Of a DNA stretch of 64,000 nt, positions 5,346-64,000 are shown piece after piece; position 1 is the first letter of the stretch, and each line of letters begins with the position of its first letter. The notes below the pieces were generated by a model, which ran no database searches, was not told the DNA's origin, and saw nothing but the letters and a program-made list of their open reading frames with translations. This stretch comes from Eledone cirrhosa (lineage: Eukaryota). Position numbers and translations under genes: made by a program. Location: NCBI GenBank assembly GCA_964016885.1, contig OZ024742.1, forward strand, positions 363,382,001-363,446,000. The letters run 5' to 3'.

Positions 5346-7402
5346 CCCTCCACCACCACCACCTTCCTTTTAAAATGGTAGTTGAAGAAAGGGAGGAGTT
5401 GTTGTCCGGAGATGATAATGAGCCAACAGATAAACACTAGCCCATAGTATTTGTCAGTGAATATAAAGTAAAGAGAAAACTCTTCTAATTTCAACAATAA
5501 TATAATTTCATTGTATAACTGATGCAAGTGTATTAATGTTTTTTTTTATTTAGTCATAAGGCCATCAATTTTGTGGAGGGTAAAGTCGATTAAATAGACC
5601 TCACTGCATGACTGGTACTTTATTTCATCGGCCCTGTAAGGACGAAAGGCAAAACTAACTTCGGTGGGATTTTAAATCAGAACGTAAATGGCTGTAGCTC
5701 TATGTCGCGAAGCCTCGTGTCTGACGCTCTGCCGCTATTAATATTAGTTAATATTGAATTGTATTCTTAATTATTAAAACCTATGCCCCTCCCCAGAAGT
5801 GTATTTCAGTACTAAACTATTAGAACTATATTTCGGTGTAGCTAATGGTAGATTCTGGTGTATAAACACTGTTCGTTATATTTCACATTTATTAGGTGCG
5901 TTTAAAATTTACAGTGAGGTGATTAGAGAATTGACGAGTCTATTATGACACGTAATATAAATGTCAGACTATTAGTTTGAGTAAGACAATCACCTTGAAA
6001 TAGTTAAACTATTATACCTACAGCCTAACTCTTAATACACATATATTTTCTTACATATCTTATTAGATTCAGAACACAATAGATACCACCTCTAAAGCAG
6101 AAAAGGTTACAATTCTCTTAAAATCGCTTCACACTGTATATACCATTTAGTAAATAATTTAATAAAATACACTAGTATAGGTTAAACAAGTATTATTTCC
6201 GAGTATATCGTCTTCAAACACAGCGGCACATTATTGTAATAACGAGTCGAAAAGCAGTGGCTCTCGGGATAAGATTGATTACATGAATATTAATTTAAAT
6301 ATATGGAAAAATAGAGAAAATATAATCTCGTTTCTTTCAAGTTACATTGAGGCCTAATGATAGTACAACTATTTGTAAATATAGAAAACATACATTTAAG
6401 ATTTTTAATAAAAACTACGTTAAATTAAGTATCCGGAGTATACATAATTTTTCTACGAAAAATAGCAAATATTATTAACAAAATTTTTAAACGGCTATCG
6501 ACGAGCAATTTAGATATTTTGTAAGAATAATACTTAGTAACTGTAGTACACGTAGCTTTGCTATAAAAATATCAAACGTTAATATAAAAAAATATTAAAA
6601 AGCTAGCATCTATTAATTCTTCTCTTTTGTGCAACGATGTAAGCTCTTAAATTATGTTATATGTCAAAGTACATACAGCTAATAATACATATTTGAAACA
6701 CATCTGGTGCTGAAGTTATAAATATATCAGAAACTATAATATATTTTAGAAGATATTACAACATGTTTGATTTTAAAAGCAGGTTAGCAATGGTTGTAAT
6801 ATTCATGAACAATGAACATATTTTTCCATTAAAAAATCACTCATTCAATGTGAACATACATTTCTAACGCCATAAATGTTGAAGTATTTCAAACAACATA
6901 GTGTCTCACGCCATAATGGTAAACACTGTGAACAAAGAAAAAGTATTGATTATGTTAACACGTATTTCATATTGTCCGATATTGTAGTCAAATATGGGAA
7001 ATGTTGAAATATTTCAAACTACCTAACGGTTGAGCACAAATAATACACATAATTTTAGGATCATAGGATATTCGGATCATAAGATCCGAATAAAGAATAT
7101 CGAAAATAAATCAGAAAAGTTACTATTGTTTATGTGCATCTCATATATCACAGATTGACATTTTCTCCATAAAATCTACGGCAAAATATGAAAACTAGGG
7201 TCGTAATATTCCTTGAACTATTTATTATATTATCCTGAATCCTTGAATTAAGTTTATTTTTTCTAAATTCTTTACAGAGTTGCATACAAATTTCTAAATA
7301 CAGCGATGAAACTAACTCAACTTGTCTTTTCAGTATATATATATATTTGTCTCTCTTTCTCTCTCCTTTTCCTCCTGGCCTTTTTATTAATAAAAGGCCT
7401 CA

Positions 7403-7477
7403 GGCGCACCCGACCTCCACCGATGTCCTGTATTTCAGCGCCGAAACATCGGATCGGGAAACATTTTCAGCTGACGA
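7403..7477 (+). ncRNA. Candidate non-circularly permuted hammerhead ribozyme (family 3)
   Basis: GGCGC a CCCGA cctcca CCGATG-TC-CTG tatttca GCGCC GAAA CATCGG a TCGGG ... CAG CTGACGA: four Watson-Crick helices and a complete core in reversed strand order. Confidence 0.7.
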
Positions 7478-7609
7478 TGGAAACTCCTTTCTTCCTTCCT
7501 CCTCTTGTTCCGTCCTAACCACCATCCTAAAACTTGATTTTAGTAACCACACAGCTCCTTTCGTTTTATATCATTTTAAATATATATACTTACGTATTTA
7601 TATCATATA

Positions 7610-7900
7610 TTCATTGTTATACTTTGGGAGGGTCATGTTGCCAATACAAACACACGCACCCGTGGGTTTCACTTCAATTTATTAAAAAGGTTTCCGGTGT
7701 TGGTTGATTGATTCGATAACCGGAAGGTTGTTTATATATTGTCAAAGATCTTTCGTCACACATTCTGTGACCTCCTCAGTGACTAGGTTTTTATTTTGTG
7801 TGTCTCTCCTTTGTTCTGTCTTACACCATCTTGTTTTTGTGTGTTGTGTGTCACAACATCAAGTAACCGCAATTTAATAACTTAAATAACACAAATACAC
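7610..7900 (-). mobile_element. Penelope-like element 3' terminal (pLTR) fragment
   Basis: Homologous to 14400-14722 and 56830-57103 (atgaccctcccaaagtataacaa terminus); contains a hammerhead. Confidence 0.75.
7741..7783 (-). ncRNA. Minimal type I hammerhead ribozyme (PLE type)
   Basis: rc: GTCA CTGAGGA GGTCACA gaatg TGTGAC GAAA GATC TT TGAC; palindromic stem III AGATCT. Confidence 0.8.
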
Positions 7901-12260: not shown

Positions 12261-13374
12261 GGTATGTGTGTGTGTGAATAAAATCCCTTGGCATATTGTT
12301 ATCTCGAATGTGTTTTGTGTGAATAATGTAGAGAGAGAAGATTTATCAACAACAAACCTGAGACAAACGTTTACCAGTTGAATTTTATATTCTTTTCCCA
12401 GAAAGCTGGGGAAATAGTTATATCGAACCGTCATGTACAAATATATATTTTCATATAATGTTTCTGGTAAAAAATACCACACTCAAACGAAATGTATATT
12501 TTTTCATAAGATTAAGAATACAATGTTTTTATGAACACATTTTTCATTTTAGTAAACATTTCTTTTGAAATACGCACCAAATATCCAAATATACCCAATA
12601 AATTTGCTTTCTGAAATTACGGAAAGGAATACGTTTCGTTTAGGCTGGAAAACTCCTGAAAATGTGCTTCAATTTAGGAGTATAAATATATGAAATAATA
12701 TTTCTAATTATAGATTCATGCTTAACTATTTTAGTGCTATGGATGTTGTATTACTGTGCGAAAACTGCTATAAGTTATTTATCAAATAGAAAATAAAAGG
12801 TTATGCAAATATTGGAGAAAAGTATCGATCTGTGATTTATAAATATAGTATTCATCCGTGCAAAATTAAAAAAAGCAACTTTATATAATGTTATATGTAA
12901 ATATGAAAATATTTTCATTGAAAAACAACATCAATATTTAGTCAACTTAGAAATATTTATTTAAAGACAAAACTTTATTAATGGAATAAAACATTGTCAA
13001 TTTCAGAAATATTTATCTCGAGTAGATAATATAATCATGGAAGAGGCAACATTTATTAATCTCCGGTATTTACATAACAGAATCAGAAAAAAATGCTTTC
13101 CTTAAAAAAAGATCGTGAAATAAAAAAACTAATGATAAAGGCGAATATATAAAGATGGGAATTGTAGCTACATTTATATTAAATGATATTGCAGACAGAC
13201 GCTTATATAATAAACTACTTAGGTTAGATATTTATGGAAGTATATTAATGTTTCAAACTACAACATTCTCGTTGAAATAAATGCCACATAGACATATTAC
13301 TGTTATATTATTGATTTATAATATAGACATACTTAGAAAGACACGCCTATGTATAAATATATATATATATATTC

Positions 13375-13427
<53 letters not shown>

Positions 13428-13437
13428 CCCAACAGAA

Positions 13438-14226
13438 ATGGAAAGACACATCCAACACTTCATCAACCGCATGCAGTTCTCTGGCTACAACCAAAGAGGC
13501 AGAGTCAGAGTATACGAAGGAGCCATGGAGAGGTATAAGACCCTCATAGAACTGGACATGAAAGGAATTTGCCTATTATACAGGAGCAAATCATGGAATA
13601 GCTTAGATAGGGCTAGACATAAGATAGGGAAAGCCACCTCATGGTACGACAACCAGAGATACCAGAGTGTCATGTTTGTGGACGCTACCCCTGGAGGCAA
13701 ATTAGCTAACCAGTGTAGAAAGGCCCTGAGAAAGACCCACTTAAAAATTAAGGTGGTAGAAAAGCCAGGAACCACCATAAAATCCCTGATCAGCAAAACC
13801 TACCCTTTTAAGAAAACCCACTGTACCAATAGGAAATGTATCATATGTAAGGTAAACCCCCGGATAAACTGTAAAACTAGAAACGTAGTCTATAGCATAA
13901 GATGTACAGAGGGTACTTTCAGAAACATGACAACAACATACATAGGTGAGACAGCTCGTAGCATAGTTGAAAGGATAGACCAACACTGGGGGGAACTAAA
14001 AGGACGAAAAAACGGGTCAGTACTATACGAACATGCTAGACAACAACATGACGGTAACATAGACAACATAGAAATTAGAATAATATCTAAACATAAAAAT
14101 GACCCAGCAGATAGGCAAATCAGAGAGCCAAGTGAAATAGAAATTAGAAGACCAAGACTAAACAGAAAGAATGAATGGAATAACAACAACACCCAAACAA
14201 ACAACACTGACCTAAGAGAAGTATAA
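13438..14226 (+). pseudogene. PLE C-terminal region: RT thumb/linker, Cys motif and GIY-YIG endonuclease
   Basis: CTNRKCIIC linker (Neptune-like Cx4Cx2C), CKTRNVVYSIRC, YIGETARS..R..QH, HARQQH, RQIRE..EI....P.LN. Confidence 0.85.
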
Positions 14227-14477: not shown

Positions 14478-14519
14478 ACCACTGACGATGTTGCAGATGT
14501 GCAACGAAAGATTTATGAT
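14478..14519 (+). ncRNA. Minimal hammerhead ribozyme, partly degenerate
   Basis: CTGACGA T GTTGCA gatg TGCAAC GAAA GATT TA TGAT. Confidence 0.65.
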
Positions 14520-16363: not shown

Positions 16364-16404
16364 CGTTGCTGACGATAGCTAATAAGCTTGAAACTAGTAC
16401 AGCG
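16364..16404 (+). ncRNA. Minimal type I hammerhead ribozyme
   Basis: CGTTG CTGACGA T AGCT aata AGCT T GAAA CTAG TA CAGCG; GUA cleavage site, palindromic ACTAGT. Confidence 0.85.
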
Positions 16405-21874: not shown

Positions 21875-21910
21875 CTCCTGATGAACGGCTTATGCCCGAA
21901 ACGTCGTTCC
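21875..21910 (+). ncRNA. Degenerate PLE-type hammerhead
   Basis: CTGATGA ACGG cttatg CCC GAAA CGTCG TT; stem I not evident. Confidence 0.5.
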
Positions 21911-44249: not shown

Positions 44250-45501
44250 TTGCACATGGGTTACATATGAATAAAATTAGTCCTTCATCAGTGATCTTCC
44301 AACCTTCATTGGTATTTCATCGCTTTAAAAATCATATACCTCTGATTGGTGCGAGCAATAACTAAATAAAGTTATTGGGACACGTAAAATAGCGTGAGAC
44401 GAGCGAGACATGTAAACAAACAAAGATGGTATTGCAACGGAAAGATAGGAAGAGACATGATATCTGTTAGCTTAAGCTTGGTGAAATCATTGACGAGAGA
44501 TACAGACTATCCGACAGGGTGAGATGTGAGCGAGAAAAGGATTTCACACAGGTCAAACGGGAGGAAGTGAGAGACGGGAAGAAGCAGAGAGTGAGTGAGT
44601 GGAAGTATGAGGAAGAGGCTAGCCGAGAGAGAGTGTGACTGGCAGAGGGGGCAAAAAGAAGGTGAGATATACAGAGAGAGGGGAAGCAGTAAGAAAGAAA
44701 CAGAATCGCAGCTGAGGAAAAAATATAAATATAAGAAAAATGGGTTACATATGAATAAAATGAGTCCTTCATCGGTGATCTTGCAACCTTCATTGGTAAT
44801 CATGTACTTCTCTCTTCCTATCTTTCCGTTGCAATACCATCTTTGTTTGTTTACATATCTCGCTCGCTTCACACTATTTTACTTGTCCCAATAACGTTAT
44901 ATTTAGTTATTGCTCGCACCAACCAGAGGTATATGATTTTAAAACGATGAAATACCAATGAAGGTTGGAAGATCACTGATGAAGGACTAATTTTATTCAT
45001 ATGTAACCCATGTGCAACCACGCAGCACTCCATTTTTCTTATATTTATATTTTTTCCTCAGCTGCGATTGTCTGTTTCTTTCTTACTGCTTCCCCTCTCT
45101 CTGTATCTCTCACCTTCTTTTTACCCTCTCTGCCAGTCACACTCTACTCGGCTGGCCTCTTCCTCGCACTTCTACTCACTCACTCTCTGCTTCTTCCCGT
45201 CTTTCACTTCCTCCCGTTTGACCTGTGTGAAATCCTTTTCTCGCTCACATCTCACCCATGTCTGATGGTCTGTATCTCTCGTCCATGAATTCACCAAGCT
45301 TAAGCTTATAGATATCATGTACCTATCTCTTCCTATCTTTCCGCTGCAATACCATCTTTGTTTGTTTACATGTCTCGCTCGCTTCACGCTATTTTACTTG
45401 TCCCAATAACTTTATTTAGTTATTGCTCGCACCAACCAGAGGTATATGATTTTTAAAGCGATCAAATAACAATGAAGTTTGGAAGATCACTGATGAAGAA
45501 C

Positions 45502-52579: not shown

Positions 52580-53310
<731 letters not shown>

Positions 53311-53454: not shown

Positions 53455-54174
53455 ATAATAGCTTTCACCGTATTTTTTGACTAAAGAAATCACATCATGT
53501 GATGTGTTGGTGTAAATGGTAGCACAGTGGTCTGGATAACCAAAGATGTGGGTTCGTCTCCCATGTACGTTAATACTCATCTTTTTCCATTTATCTGAGG
53601 GTTCTAAACCCCATTATCAGACTAAAATTTCTTTAGTAAAAAAATACGGTGAAAGCTATTCTATTTTCTAATTTCAAACCTGCTCACTGTTTTAAAACAT
53701 ATTTACTAGTCATATATATATATATATATATATATTTTACAAAGCGAAACTGATCAGTAAGGGCCACTAGGAGAGGTAAATATTTATATTATATTTTTTA
53801 ATGTATTTTAAAGAATTGATTGGATTTTACTTGCTCTGCTTATCTTAATATTAAAGTTCTGGTGTATCAAATTAATACCATTGAACAACCTTGAATCATA
53901 GACAACCTATGTATTTCTAGGGGTACCTAGTATCCTTGGACATATTAACTTCATTCATTATACTCCTCCATTATGTTGAGAACAAATCTGTTGTTCTATT
54001 TAGCTGCTATTTTTTTTAGTAGTAATTGTAGACAGCAAGTCTTTGATTTTCCCGCTTTTACTTCGGTCCAGTTTACATACGGGTCACTTTTACGACCTTT
54101 CAGACCTTTATTTGCTGGCAGGGGGTCATATATTTTGTCGTTCTTGGGACGTTTAGCTCTAGGAAAGGAAAATG

Positions 54175-54255
54175 CTTCTCTGATGAGCTTTGGTTTTCCA
54201 TCAGAAATCCATCGGATTTATGAGGTTTTACAAAGCGAAACTGATGAGTAAGGGC
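54175..54255 (+). ncRNA. Type I hammerhead with a long stem II; partial direct repeat at 53736-53850
   Basis: CTTCT CTGATGA GCTTTG...AAATCC atc GGATTT...CAAAGC GAAA CTGAT(G/C)AG TA AGGG. Confidence 0.75.
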
Positions 54256-54761: not shown

Positions 54762-55451
54762 TTGTATCGCGCTACCTTGAGGTATATGGTCTGTAATGCG
54801 AAGAAATACCTATGATGGCTAGTAGACCACTGATGACGGATCTTCCTGGCTTCTATTTCTAATTCTTCATTTATTATATATATATCCTATTTGCATCAAC
54901 ACAGCTCGCCATTTTTCATTCATATATGCTTTCACCTTCGCTGTGACCTGTCTTTTACTCTTCCCTTACTGCTATCCTCTTTCTCTCTCCCCTTTCTCTC
55001 TCCTTCTCCCTCTTACTTTCACTCACCCCCTTTTTCTAGTCACCCTCTCTCGGCTAGCCTCTTCCTCACACATTCACTCGTTCACTCTCTGCTACTCACC
55101 CTCTCTCTCACTTCCTCCATCGTGTCACACCGTACGAGATTCTTTCCTCACTCACATCCGCACGGCCAAGATGTGCCTTTGTCTTCTCGTCAGTATTCGC
55201 AAGTTCTTATGTTCAAAATGAATTATTGACTTGATTTTCTCATTGTTTCCTCTCTTTACGTTGCCTCATCATTCATGTTTGTTTACCTGTCTCACTTACT
55301 CCACCCAACTCTTTTTATCCCACTAATTTAATTTAGTTATTGTATCGACCTAGCTTGAGGTGTATGGTCTGTAATGCGAAGAAATACCTGTGATGGCTAG
55401 TAGATCACTGATGACGGATATTCCTGGCTTCTATTTCTAATTCTTCATTTG

Positions 55452-56431: not shown

Positions 56432-57103
56432 ATATAGTGTACATAGGTAAGACAGCTCGTAGTATAGGAAAACGGATAAATGAACACTGGCGAGAGCTTC
56501 AAGATAGTACAAAATCATCTCTACCTACCAACATGCTAAAATATAACATAAGGGTAAATTAAAGAGCATAAAAATAAAAATAGAATCTATACACAGAAAA
56601 GACGCAATGTTTAGACAAATCACAGAGGCAATAAACTTAAATGAACTCCAACCAAAATTAAATAGAAAGTATGAATGGAATAGCAACATCACAACTTACA
56701 ATTAAGGACAAAATGAAAACACACACACACACATAGAACAAACAACCAACCAGTAACATGTAAATAAACAAATAAATAAACAAATATAAACACACACAGA
56801 CACCCGGATGTAACACATGCGCAATCTAAGCACACAGCACACACAAAAACAAGATGGCGTAGGACAGAACAAAGGAGAGGCACAAAAACAAAGAAACGAA
56901 TCCCCAGTCACTGAAGAGGTCACAGAATGTGTGACGAAAGAACTTTGACAATATATGAACAATCGTCTGGTTGTGGAACCAACCAACCAACCGGAAATTT
57001 ATAAATTCCTAAATTTATAAATTTAATTTATAATAAATTGAAGTGAAACAATTTGTGCGTGTGTTTCTTATTAGCAATATGACCCTCCCAAAGTATAACA
57101 ATA
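56432..57103 (+). mobile_element. Degenerate Penelope-like 3' fragment (GIY-YIG remnant and pLTR with hammerhead at 56907-56949)
   Basis: tacataggtaagacagctcgt (YIGKTAR), aaattaaatagaaagtatgaatgg (KLNRKYEW); GTCA CTGAAGA GGTCACA gaatg TGTGAC GAAA GAAC TT TGAC. Confidence 0.8.
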
Positions 57104-59789: not shown

Positions 59790-62700
59790 CTACTACTACT
59801 ACTTCTACTGTTACTACAACTACTGCTAACACTACCACCTCCACTACTACTACTGTTACTACAACTACTGCTAACACTACCACCTCCACTACTACTACTG
59901 TAACTACAACTACTGCTAATACTACCACCTCCACTACTACTACTGTTACTACAACTACTGCTAACACTACCACCTCCACTACTACTACTGTTACTACAAC
60001 TACTGCTAACACTACCACCTCCACTACTACTACTGTTACTACAACTACTGCTAACACTACCACCTCCACTACTACTACTGTTACTACAACTACTGCTAAC
60101 ACTACCACCTCCACTACTACTACTACTGTTACTACAACTACTGCTAACACTACCACCTCCACTACTACTACTACTGTTACTACAACTACTGCTAACACTA
60201 CCACCTCCACTACTACTACTACTGTTACTACAACTACTGCTAACACTACCACCTCCACTACTACTACTACTGTTACTACAACTACTGCTAACACTACCAC
60301 CTCCACTACTACTGCTGTTACTACAACTACTGCTAACACTACCACCTCCACTACTACTACTGTTACTACAACTACTGCTAACACTACCACCTCCACTACT
60401 ACTGCTGTTACTACAACTACTGCTAACACTACCACCTCCACTACTACTACTGTTACTACAACTACTGCTAACACTACCACCTCCACTACTACTACTACTG
60501 TTACTACAACTACTGCTAACACTACCACCTCCACTACTACTACTACTGTTACTACAATTACTGCTAACACTACCACCTCCACTACTACTACTGTTACTAC
60601 AACTACTGCTAACACTACCACCTCCACTACTACTACTGCTGTTACTACAACTACTGCTAACACTACCACCTCCACTACTACTGCTGTTACTACAACTACT
60701 GCTAACACTACCACCTCCACTACTACTACTGTTACTACAACTACTGCTAACACTACCACCTCCACTACTACTACTACTGTTACTACAACTACTGCTAACA
60801 CTACCACCTCCACTACTACTACTGTTACTACAACTACTGCTAACACTACCACCTCCACTACTACTACTACTGTTACTACAACTACTGCTAACACTACCAC
60901 CTCCACTACTACTACTGTTACTACAACTACTGCTAACACTACCACCTCCACTACTACTACTACTGTTACTACAACTACTGCTAACACTACCACCTCCACT
61001 ACTACTACTACTGTTACTACAACTACTGCTAACACTACCACCTCCACTACTACTACTGTTACTACAACTACTGCTAACACTACCACCTCCACTACTACTA
61101 CTACTGTTACTACAACTACTGCTAACACTACCACCTCCACTACTACTACTGTTACTACAACTACTGCTAACACTACCACCTCCACTACTACTACTACTGT
61201 TACTACAACTACTGCTAACACTACCACCTCCACTACTACTACTGTTACTACAACTACTGCTAACACTACCACCTCCACTACTACTACTACTGTTACTACA
61301 ACTACTGCTAACACTACCACCTCCACTACTACTACTGTTACTACAACTACTGCTAACACTACCACCTCCACTACTACTACTACTGTTACTACAACTACTG
61401 CTAACACTACCACCTCCACTACTACTACTACTGTTACTACAACTACTGCTAACACTACCACCTCCACTACTACTACTGTTACTACAACTACTGCTAACAC
61501 TACCACCTCCACTACTACTACTGTTACTACAACTACTGCTAACACTACCACCTCCACTACTACTACTGTTACTACAACTACTGCTAACACTACCACCTCC
61601 ACTACTACTACTACTGTTACTACAACTACTGCTAACACTACCACCTCCACTACTACTACTGTTACTACAACTACTGCTAACACTACCACCTCCACTACTA
61701 CTACTACTGTTACTACAACTACTGCTAACACTACCACCTCCACTACTACTACTGTTACTACAACTACTGTTACTACAACTACTGCTAACACTACCACCTC
61801 CACTACTACTACTACTGTTACTACAACTACTGCTAACACTACCACCTCCACTACTACTACTGTTACTACAACTACTGCTAACACTACCACCTCCACTACT
61901 ACTACTGTTACTACAACTACTGCTAACACTACCACCTCCACTACTACTACTGTTACTACAACTACTGCTAACACTACCACCTCCACTACTACTACTGTTA
62001 CTACAACTACTGCTAACACTACCACCTCCACTACTACTACTGTTACTACAACTACTGCTAACACTACCACCTCCACTACTACTACTGTTACTACAACTAC
62101 TGCTAACACTACCACCTCCACTACTACTACTACTGTTACTACAACTACTGCTAACACTACCACCTCCACTACTACTACTGTTACTACAACTACTGCTAAC
62201 ACTACCACCTCCACTACTACTACTGTTACTACAACTACTGCTAACACTACCACCTCCACTACTACTACTGTTACCACAAATACTGCTAACACTACCACCT
62301 CCACTACTACTACTGTTACCACAACTACTGCTAACACTACCACCTCCACTACTACTAGTGTTACTACAACTACTGCTAACACTACCACCTCCACTACTAC
62401 TACTACTGTTACTACAACTACTGCTAACACTACCACCTCCACTACTACTACTGTTACTACAACTACTGCTAACACTACCACCTCCACTACTACTACTACT
62501 ACTGTTACTACAACTACTGCTAACACTACCACCTCCACTACTACTACTGTTACCACAACTACTGCTAACACTACCACCTCCACTACTACTACTGTTACTA
62601 CAACTACTGCTAACACTACCACCTCCACTACTACTACTGTTACCACAACTACTGCTAACACTACCACCTCCACTACTACTACTGTTACTACAACTACTGC

Positions 62701-64000
62701 TAACACTACCACCTCCACTACTACTACTGTTACTACAACTACTGCTAACACTACCACCTCCACTACTACTACTGTTACTACAACTACTGCTAACACTACC
62801 ACCTCCACTACTACTACTGTTACTACAACTACTGCTAACACTACCATCTCCACTACTACTACTGTTACTACAACTACTGCTAACACTACCACCTCCACTA
62901 CTACTACTGTTACTACAACTACTGCTAACACTACCACCTCCACTACTACTACTACTGTTACTACAACTACTGCTAACACTACCACCTCCACTACTACTAC
63001 TGTTACTACAACTACTGCTAACACTACCACCTCCACTACTACTACTACTGTTACTACAACTACTGCTAACAATACCACCTCCACTACTACTACTGTTACT
63101 ACAACTACTGCTAACACTACCACCTCCACTACTACTACTGTTACTACAACTACTGCTAACACTACCACCTCCACTACTACTACTGTTACTACAACTACTG
63201 CTAACACTACCACCTCCACTACTACTACTGTTACCACAACTACTGCTAACACTACCACCTCCACTACTACTACTGTTACTACAACTACTGCTAACACTAC
63301 CACCTCCACTACTACTACTGTTACTACAACTACTGCTAACACTACCACCTCCACTACTACTACTGTTACTACAACTACTGCTAACACTACCACCTCCACT
63401 ACTACTACTGTTACTACAACTACTGCTAACACTACCACCTCCACTACTACTACTGTTACCACAACTACTGCTAACACTACCACCTCCACTACTACTACTG
63501 TTACTACAACTACTGCTAACACTACCACCTCCACTACTACTACTGTTACCACAACTACTGCTAACACTACCACCTCCACTACTACTACTGTTACTACAAC
63601 TACTGCTAACACTACCACCTCCACTACTACTACTGTTACTACAACTACTGCTAACACTACCACCTCCACTACTACTACTGTTACCACAACTACTGCTAAC
63701 ACTACCACCTCCACTACTACTACTGTTACTACAACTACTGCTAACACTACCACCTCCACTACTACTACTGTTACTACAACTACTGCTAACACTACCACCT
63801 CCACTACTACTACTGTTACTACAACTACTGCTAACACTACCACCTCCACTACTACTACTACTGTTACTACAACTACTGGTAACACTACCACCTCCACTAC
63901 TACTACTACTGTTACTACAACTACTGCTAACACTACCACCTCCACTACTACTACTGTTACTACAACTACTGCTAACACTACCACCTCCACTACTACTACT
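59790..64000. repeat. 42/45-bp (ACT)-derived minisatellite running off the window end
   Basis: Unit ACTACTACTACTGTTACTACAACTACTGCTAACACTACCACCTCC with one ACT more or fewer. Confidence 0.97.

Follow-up and report, generated by a model that had tools for sequence, protein, structure and literature searches.

The hammerhead class closest to the element described here is type SGC (Eckert et al. 2023), whose order of cleavage site, GAAA and CUGANGA has been published from metatranscriptomes, its only source in that account, and which was validated in vitro as a cleaving ribozyme (PMC10085705). The same work defined six permutations of three uninterrupted blocks, with block C assumed to be uninterruptible; its SGC descriptor requires CUGAUGA(U)G together with a stem II, and the rearranged hammerheads it reports came almost only from virus-like RNAs of unknown hosts (PMC10085705). 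Activity without a continuous helix II has been described for the PK hammerhead, which cleaves fast with a single 10.1-11.1 pair and a remote helix (PMC11300833), and engineered minizymes and miniribozymes cleave as well (PMC544870). Animal retrozymes have been reported as non-autonomous derivatives of Penelope-like elements (bioRxiv 10.64898/2026.07.22.740005). Penelope-like elements themselves insert as partial tandems and as inverted, 5'-truncated copies, with insertion into (TA)n, and the Naiad group among them targets (TA)n and is described there as being without canonical hammerheads (PMC8557442).

The DNA analyzed here (the window) is a stretch of 64,000 nucleotides from Eledone cirrhosa, taken from contig OZ024742.1 (363,382,001-363,446,000), and the surrounding 3.0-Gb assembly is rich in (TA)n and in LINE-like and Penelope-like coding remnants. 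A motif was delimited at 7368-7483 on the forward strand, longer than first described. Our reading of it, to which a probability of roughly 0.7 was assigned, is a self-cleaving hammerhead with the order site-GAAA-CUGANGA, in which stem II would be rebuilt by an upstream bridging strand, carried by Penelope-dependent retrozyme repeats in about 20,000 copies. From 5' to 3', the elements follow one another as the P0 strand, hairpin H, the P2 strand, 1 base, the PX strand, a linker, the stem III strand, UH and the stem I strand; then 4-5 nt, the P2 partner, (N), GAAA, the stem III partner and the PX partner; and finally the stem I partner, CUGANGA, N and the P0 partner. In the window copy, they lie as follows.

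7368-7373 (+): P0 5' strand, start of the bridging strand; predicted partner is the tail after CUGACGA, with 5/6 pairs in the window copy and 6/6 in 29/34 copies; double changes U-A/C-G and U-A/A-U
7377-7399 (+): hairpin H, 8 bp, on the bridging strand; same-branch double changes 3.0 against a null of 0.28, p 0.001 (B/C/D group)
7403-7407 (+): P2 5' strand GGCGC, predicted to take the place of the stem II strand normally 3' of CUGANGA; partner GCGCC at 7438-7442
7409-7413 (+): PX 5' strand CCCGA, putative equivalent of the stem I-stem II interaction helix of type SGC; double changes 9.4 against a null of 1.6, p<0.001
7420-7427 (+): stem III strand CCGATG (7420-7425) and TC (7426-7427), completing a GUC triplet; predicted cut between 7427 and 7428
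7428-7433 (+): stem I strand (CTG at 7428-7430); partner at 7465-7470, with 4/6 pairs in the window copy and 6/6 in 31/34 copies
7438-7452 (+): block G, made up of the P2 3' strand GCGCC (7438-7442), core GAAA (7443-7446) and stem III strand CATCGG (7447-7452)
7454-7458 (+): PX 3' strand TCGGG; partner CCCGA at 7409-7413
7465-7477 (+): block C, made up of the stem I strand (CAG at 7468-7470) and core CUGACGA (7471-7477)
7478-7483 (+): tail N-GGAAA, P0 3' strand; no normal stem II to 7438-7442, at most 2 bp with a bulged U

All strands named in the initial annotation between 7403 and 7477 were present in the sequence. Its four-helix topology was correct for the helices it named and incomplete, as P0 (7368-7373/7478-7483) and hairpin H (7377-7399) had been overlooked; the construct it proposed, 7395-7485, excludes the P0 5' strand and half of H. 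The hammerhead core was present (CUGANGA, GAAA and NUH with A15.1-U16.1), and its claimed departure from circular permutation was borne out. A descriptor for the site-GAAA-CUGANGA order, with a stem III of at least 4 bp and a stem I of at least 3 bp, matched the window five times (7426+, 44932+, 44336-, 54785+ and 55363+), against a mean of 0.017 and a maximum of 1 in 60 dinucleotide shuffles. The order found is that of type SGC, in which stems I and III cross, and not the circularly permuted order of hammerhead types I-III. A comparison with Rfam had also been proposed: hammerhead families were absent from the best 150 of 166 window matches and from the 5 matches at E<=10 in 7250-7900.

The genome-wide pattern search suggested by the initial annotation was productive. 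The pattern GCG-NN-GAAA-N21-26-CTGANGA-N-GG, which covers the 3' half of the motif, gave 16,485 matches in the 3.0-Gb genome against 4 for the reversed control, and a lineage with GCAA for GCGA (TTGC/GCAA) added 3,033 further matches against 0. Patterns leaving out the families of the window returned 4,097 matches against 3 (the pattern without all three window families, A, B and C), 69 against 2 and 237 against 1, and revealed lineages D and A'. Sister A-type families gave 123 matches, some of them overlapping, with a pattern gap that excluded family A proper. These are counts of exact matches, which leave out copies decayed at the fixed positions and include some matches without the 5' half; the total is roughly 20,000 copies in the genome, a superfamily of retroelement copies of which the first description held nothing. 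For the flagged 121 bases, there were 744 first-look candidates, 40 of which were scored (the window and 39 others at ~ 93-94%), and the other two window motifs had 780 and 2,088 first-look candidates. Viral contigs gave 0 matches for the full pattern and 88 for the half pattern, and metagenomes gave 4; with lineage-specific patterns, likeness to the motif was found in none of these 92, two of which had 3-4 bp in both stems.

The recurrences noted before at 44.3-45.5 kb and 54.8-55.4 kb are real. The copies in the window and the features attached to the first of them are as follows.

7346-7610 (+): 5'-truncated copy, ~ 265 bp, of a non-coding repeat of family A (full unit 768-778 nt elsewhere), flanked by TA/CT microsatellite; homology to 29 other family loci confined to L001 1467-1731
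7542-7555 (+): short downstream motif (14 nt) common to the families, possibly a retrotransposition signal; 73/90 occurrences in the examined loci lie 27-63 nt behind a motif copy
44280-44381 (-): family B copy with core and all six helices, in an inverted/tandem insertion
44885-44987 (+): family B copy with one substitution in the P2 3' strand
45400-45501 (+): family B tandem copy 515 nt downstream of the 44885 copy; core G12 changed, predicted inactive
54762-54842 (+): family C copy, 5'-truncated in (TA)n, without the P0 5' strand and most of H
55316-55420 (+): family C copy, complete, 578 nt downstream of the 54762 copy

The initial annotation had singled out the first copy as the cleanest example, which is mistaken: among 34 gap-free family A copies, the copy at 7368-7483 has the weakest stem I (4/6 pairs), and PX and P0 each have 5/6. 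It is probably a silent, weakened relic within a truncated and decaying insertion.

Other hammerhead-like and repetitive sequences also occur in the window. Two related motifs, each with CUGANGA, a short hairpin and GAAA in conventional order as in minimal type I hammerheads, lie at 7735-7779 (-) and 56911-56955 (+), and a very high-copy repeat directly adjoins the 7368-7483 motif. A truncated Penelope-like ORF with a GIY-YIG-like end (no Pfam match at E<=0.001) occupies 13357-14226 (+), and 3' of it, at 14482-14512 (+), there is a conventional-order hammerhead-like motif with a 6-bp stem II, a probable pLTR. Repeats at 16369, 16793 and 17259 (+), in tandem 424-466 nt apart, and at 52875 (-) carry minimal hammerhead-like cores of conventional order and form a second, ordinary retrozyme-like family; more CUGANGA...GAAA motifs, of Penelope type and partly in inverted pairs, lie at 21878, 41679/41818, 42553, 54180-54241 and 54638. 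Several broken copies of a LINE-type retrotransposon with endonuclease and reverse transcriptase domains were seen at 2.5-4.4, 8.5-11.9, 23.6-25.5, 26.9-30.3 and 32.7-35.3 kb (+), a 45-bp satellite with at least 91 copies and strong strand skew at 59798-64000, and a tRNA-like match at 53501-53572 (+), which at 40.9 bits is over the Rfam cut-off and may be a SINE head.

The conservation of the core was examined across copies from the genome. From 200 distinct motif rows, 43 were dropped (truncated, inverted or with an upstream part too unlike the rest) by a filter on sequence likeness rather than pairing, which left 157. The search patterns set letters of the 3' half only and left the upstream partners free, so that GCG, GAAA, CUGANGA and GG are bound to be invariant in rows found by pattern. 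U16.1 was present in 152/157 copies and a base other than G at position 17 in 156/157, neither being set by the search pattern, and N7 was variable (T 112, C 38, A 6, G 1). Family A has CUGACGA and GUC in 31/34 copies; the triplet in most families is AUA, not GUC. Core positions are given in conventional hammerhead numbering, also where this goes beyond what the cited papers give.

A canonical stem II, between the strand after CUGANGA and the strand before GAAA, was 38% and 31% paired in its two registers. Its longest version per copy was 0 bp in 29 copies, 1 bp in 81, 2 bp in 46 and 3 bp in 1 (n = 157), and a G-C pair with at least 2 further bp directly after CUGANGA(U), the published SGC rule, was found in 0/157. 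Canonical stem II was thus excluded in both registers. P2, by comparison, was 97% paired, with U-A, A-U and G-C at the core-proximal position across lineages, and the GG of the tail was 96-100% complementary to an upstream CC, without pairing to the G-block strand in B/C/D. A register for P2 in family B that had been chosen by eye at the outset (the ATTG strand) was dropped, since that strand belongs to hairpin H. As an out-of-sample check on P2, a pattern excluding GCG was used and led to the lineage with TTGC/GCAA, in which the compensating T, at a position left free in the pattern, was present in 92 of the first 100 listed matches and in 57/65 outside one 35-copy array; further paired swaps in PX and stem III were seen by eye in the listed matches. 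This upholds the earlier proposal that the GGCGC/GCGCC helix stands in place of stem II. Note that the change to TTGC/GCAA amounts to two CpG transitions, in essence a single evolutionary event, and that few independent changes underlie P0 and P2.

The two stem II strands are therefore both predicted, from these complementarities, to pair with a single upstream bridging strand that carries a hairpin. In B/C/D, the gaps from P0 to H and from H to P2 are 0-2 nt, and the 10.1-11.1 pair was kept in 41/55 rows and broken in 14/55; because P0, H and P2 abut so closely and the single 10.1-11.1 pair is usually kept, a four-way junction atop the core is suggested for these lineages. A-type copies have no 10.1-11.1 pair left: the base that follows A9 is paired within P0, and the one that precedes G12 within P2. 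Modeled in this way, the motif is likely a type SGC hammerhead in which the module of stem II strand and interaction strand, otherwise at the 3' end, has come to lie at the 5' end and makes up a fourth movable block, with the break between A9 and 10.1.

It could be that the motif is instead an ordinary type SGC hammerhead in which the tail after CUGANGA makes a minimal stem II of 1-2 bp; the helices upstream would then be only peripheral clamps or part of an alternative inactive fold. Family A reads CUGACGA-U-GG and CC-GAAA like the published SGC core and permits 2 bp, the 10.1-11.1 pair forms in those 41/55 B/C/D rows, and ribozymes with a single-pair stem II are described as working (PMC544870, PMC11300833). 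However, this would leave unexplained why P2 is 97% paired, shows three pair types at a single position and is compensated in one more lineage, and why the tail GG is complementary to the upstream CC rather than to the G-block strand; moreover, no canonical pair is possible in 29/157 copies. The minimal stem II was consequently judged unlikely, and the bridged stem II is preferred.

The evidence for the remaining helices came from two alignments. The 157 rows were reduced to 56 representatives. Of these, the 45 B/C/D rows went into an alignment based on sequence only, without the 10 A rows and the one chimeric row; in this alignment, the six helices and the 10.1-11.1 pair were 90.9% paired. 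A second sequence-only alignment contained 55 copies, 39 of the earlier rows and 16 further ones, chosen by eye because their 5' half was intact. Here 94.5% of cells paired, against 29-43% in slid controls, and 22 of the 34 pairs had changed on both sides. In 14 A-type copies, 92.3% were paired, with P0 swaps U-A/C-G and U-A/A-U. Stems I and III, both of which flank the predicted cleavage site, were 96-97% paired in the 55-copy alignment with several pair types, and neither beat a tree-aware null. PX was 95% paired with a tree-aware p<0.001; this additional helix links the stem I side to the stem II side, and its 5' strand lies upstream and not at the 3' end.

The tree-aware tests were custom scripts, not R-scape, from which A-type rows and the TTGC/GCAA lineage were left out. 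Same-branch double changes exceeded the matched-column null for PX (9.4 vs 1.6, p<0.001) and H (3.0 vs 0.28, p 0.001); there was no excess for P0 (p 0.16), P2 (p 0.22), stem I (p 0.22), stem III (p 1.0) or the 10.1-11.1 pair (p 0.24). In a tree-aware G-test, 5/36 structure pairs reached E<0.05 (three in PX, one in H and one in P2), and over all 6,216 column pairs none did so (best E 0.9). The natural covariation claimed for the motif thus held among relatives, but it was significant on the tree for PX and H only. P0 is the least secure helix of the six, because its 5' strand sits in a pyrimidine-rich stretch, in which GGA readily finds a partner. RNAfold, run blind and drawing no pseudoknots, returned P0, H, PX and stem III together in 2/8 copies (L059 and L091), P0, H and stem I in L009 and parts of the model in the others. 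The z-scores were -0.7 to -2.5, the centroid of the window copy held H and P2 only, and the family A GUC site can mispair with the core, as in the minimum-energy fold of L009. Taken as a whole, the predicted six-helix fold is regarded as very likely correct.

One could also read these data as a neutral DNA repeat in which the pairings are inherited accidents of a single ancestral sequence. The copies do fall in few deep lineages, and several helices are not significant once the tree is considered. Against this, PX and H are significant under the tree-aware null, compensated lineages have been amplified to thousands of copies, and chance is far from explaining a complete hammerhead core in which stems I and III are in register (5 matches against a mean of 0.017 in shuffles). 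We therefore regard an accidental origin of the pairings as highly improbable, and a hammerhead fold remains the preferred reading.

The repeat that carries the motif was then considered. Motifs recur on one strand every 470-806 nt, in assemblies ranging from partial dimers to arrays of 9 and at least 35 units: at C1:43.918-43.924 Mb there are 9 units of 721-806 nt, and at C1:81.547-81.567 Mb at least 35 head-to-tail units of ~ 515 nt. The units are 67-71% pyrimidine. Their longest ATG frames measure 18-195 aa, and nothing resembling Penelope or L1 was found inside them. As in retrozymes, they are non-coding tandem units with one hammerhead each and many dispersed copies; as in Penelope-style insertion, they occur as partial tandem or inverted insertions at microsatellites with 5' truncation. 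Their 3' ends run into (TA)n at a variable distance behind the ribozyme, and their 5' ends are truncated or inverted. The hammerhead is of SGC order and not of type I, the type carried by non-LTR retrozymes. Among ~ 240 loci of 1.6-6.5 kb, no autonomous element carrying the motif was found, and the Penelope-like ORFs in the flanks resemble unrelated neighbors or insertion targets. An RNA-polymerase-III B-box was not matched in 6 units, and circular folding was clearly better than in shuffles in 2/6 units only. By analogy with the described elements, the carrier repeats are likely Penelope-dependent retrozymes.

The positions of 5' ends relative to the predicted cut were counted in 100 copies chosen by a downstream anchor (21 short regions): ~ 7 fell in -75..-7, 10 in -6..+18, 6 in +19..+46 and 7 in +47..+50, and in this sample there was no sharp pile-up at the predicted cleavage site. 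A hot spot of 5' ends lies just before GAAA (802 vs 51 in the control), which (TA)n microhomology and ordinary early truncation explain equally well. Across the genome, many copies start no more than a few bases before GAAA beside (TA)n, and such starts also occur in the upstream partial copy of dimers (e.g., L350, L352, L363, L374, L381 and L382).

A different interpretation is that the structure derives from a hammerhead but has lost cleavage, or depends for it on a protein or on dimer formation, and that the retroelement RNA retains it for recognition or stability. The absence of a sharp excess of 5' ends at the site is in keeping with this, and complete copies read straight across the predicted cut, so that their templates would have been uncut or religated. 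There are precedents among retrozymes, in the reports that 1/9 tested dimers cleaved (bioRxiv 10.64898/2026.07.22.740005) and that some vertebrate retrozyme hammerheads work best as dimers (PMC7229834). However, reading across the site is explained by a circular template, and across lineages whose stems have been rewritten the core follows the catalytic pattern: N7 varies freely, U16.1 is kept and H17 is not G. Loss of autonomous cleavage was thus considered improbable, and we expect with good confidence that intact members of the predicted ribozyme cleave.

For such a ribozyme, the following course is proposed. In the transcript, the strand before GAAA would pair with the bridge to form P2 and the tail after CUGANGA with the bridge further upstream to form P0, with H between them; PX would hold the stem I and stem II sides together, and folding would be complete once the tail has paired back to P0. 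Tandem units would be transcribed and then cut after the NUH site (C7427 in the window copy) by standard hammerhead chemistry, with G12 as the base and the 2'-OH of G8 as the acid (PMC11300833). The resulting monomers, with 2',3'-cyclic phosphate and 5'-OH ends, would be kept together by P0, P2, PX and stem III and could be ligated to circles by the host ligase RtcB, reported as the circularizing ligase of type I retrozymes (PMC7229834), or by the ribozyme itself. A Penelope-like reverse transcriptase/GIY-YIG nuclease would prime at a (TA)n nick and copy around the circle, and copies reading across the cut site and carrying terminal repeats would therefore arise. This cycle of circle and Penelope machinery, proposed by analogy, is considered fairly likely.

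With somewhat less assurance, at rather better than even odds, we would go further and propose a natural, active hammerhead in a four-block permutation beyond the six thought possible, in which the core is broken after A9, ahead of 10.1, and a bridged four-way junction closes it again. No ribozyme of non-circularly permuted order would have been described from a cellular genome before, and this one would drive a retrozyme superfamily of about 20,000 copies, with four helices clamping the cut ends for circularization. It might even be the missing 'non-canonical' ribozyme of those Penelope-like elements that target (TA)n. If this is true, a fourth block, naturally covarying and present tens of thousands of times in the genome, would widen the fold space of the hammerhead and go beyond the three unbreakable blocks assumed when non-circular permutations were discovered in 2023 (PMC10085705). 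It would also explain why standard descriptors and Rfam miss the motif, and would supply a large, assayable set of variants for the origin of non-circular permutations. A topology that keeps both cut ends paired could serve RNA circularization, and the findings suggest that 'ribozyme-less' retroelements may hide rewired ribozymes.

Compared with type SGC (HRIMA-1 and the SGC variants), the motif has the same block order of site, GAAA and CUGANGA; stem I and block G are likewise joined by a short linker, which reads UUCA in family A and in many HRIMA-1 rows, an interaction helix begins 0-6 nt after stem III, and the module of stem II strand, 1 nt and interaction strand is shared (PMC10085705). 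The difference lies in where this module stands: in 52 SGC and 33 variant rows, inspected by eye, it is directly 3' of CUGANGA(U) with the interaction strand last (PMC10085705), whereas here it is upstream of the cleavage site, tied by P0 and H. The motif is set apart from type SGC despite the common order because the defining stem II feature fails. The PK hammerhead (Zhan et al. 2024, PDB 8YDC) is alike in that helix II is down to the 10.1-11.1 pair and is functionally replaced by a helix with a remote strand; there, however, the short stem II loop pairs with the helix IV loop in a pistol-like connectivity (PMC11300833). That connectivity is not seen here, as the pairing strands are not a loop closed between A9 and G12; A9 and G12 instead lie on strands in reversed order, each flank paired to a different part of one bridge.

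The carrier units resemble the non-LTR retrozymes of animals (Cervera and de la Pena 2020; Li et al. 2026) as non-coding tandem units with one hammerhead per unit, in monomers, dimers and long arrays and in thousands of copies, in a Penelope-rich genome (PMC7229834; bioRxiv 10.64898/2026.07.22.740005). Those retrozymes carry type I hammerheads, and by its own description the 2026 survey sought type I motifs only (bioRxiv 10.64898/2026.07.22.740005). Their units are 170-400 nt (PMC7229834) or 51-972 nt (bioRxiv 10.64898/2026.07.22.740005) long, as compared with 470-806 nt here, and they occur as linear and circular monomer RNA, a form predicted for the present units by the proposed cycle. Unlike Penelope-like elements and their pLTRs (Craig et al. 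2021), the units hold no reverse transcriptase or GIY-YIG coding; with them they share partial tandems, inverted 5'-truncated copies and (TA)n insertion (PMC8557442). A search of the full-text literature, with most subscription journals outside its reach, returned no second primary report of SGC, no case in a genome and no example of a bridged stem II. The order described in the initial annotation is that of the published type SGC, and the split stem II is not part of that description (PMC10085705). As far as searched, then, what is new here is the split stem II with its bridging strand and the occurrence in a cellular genome, the block order itself having already been published.
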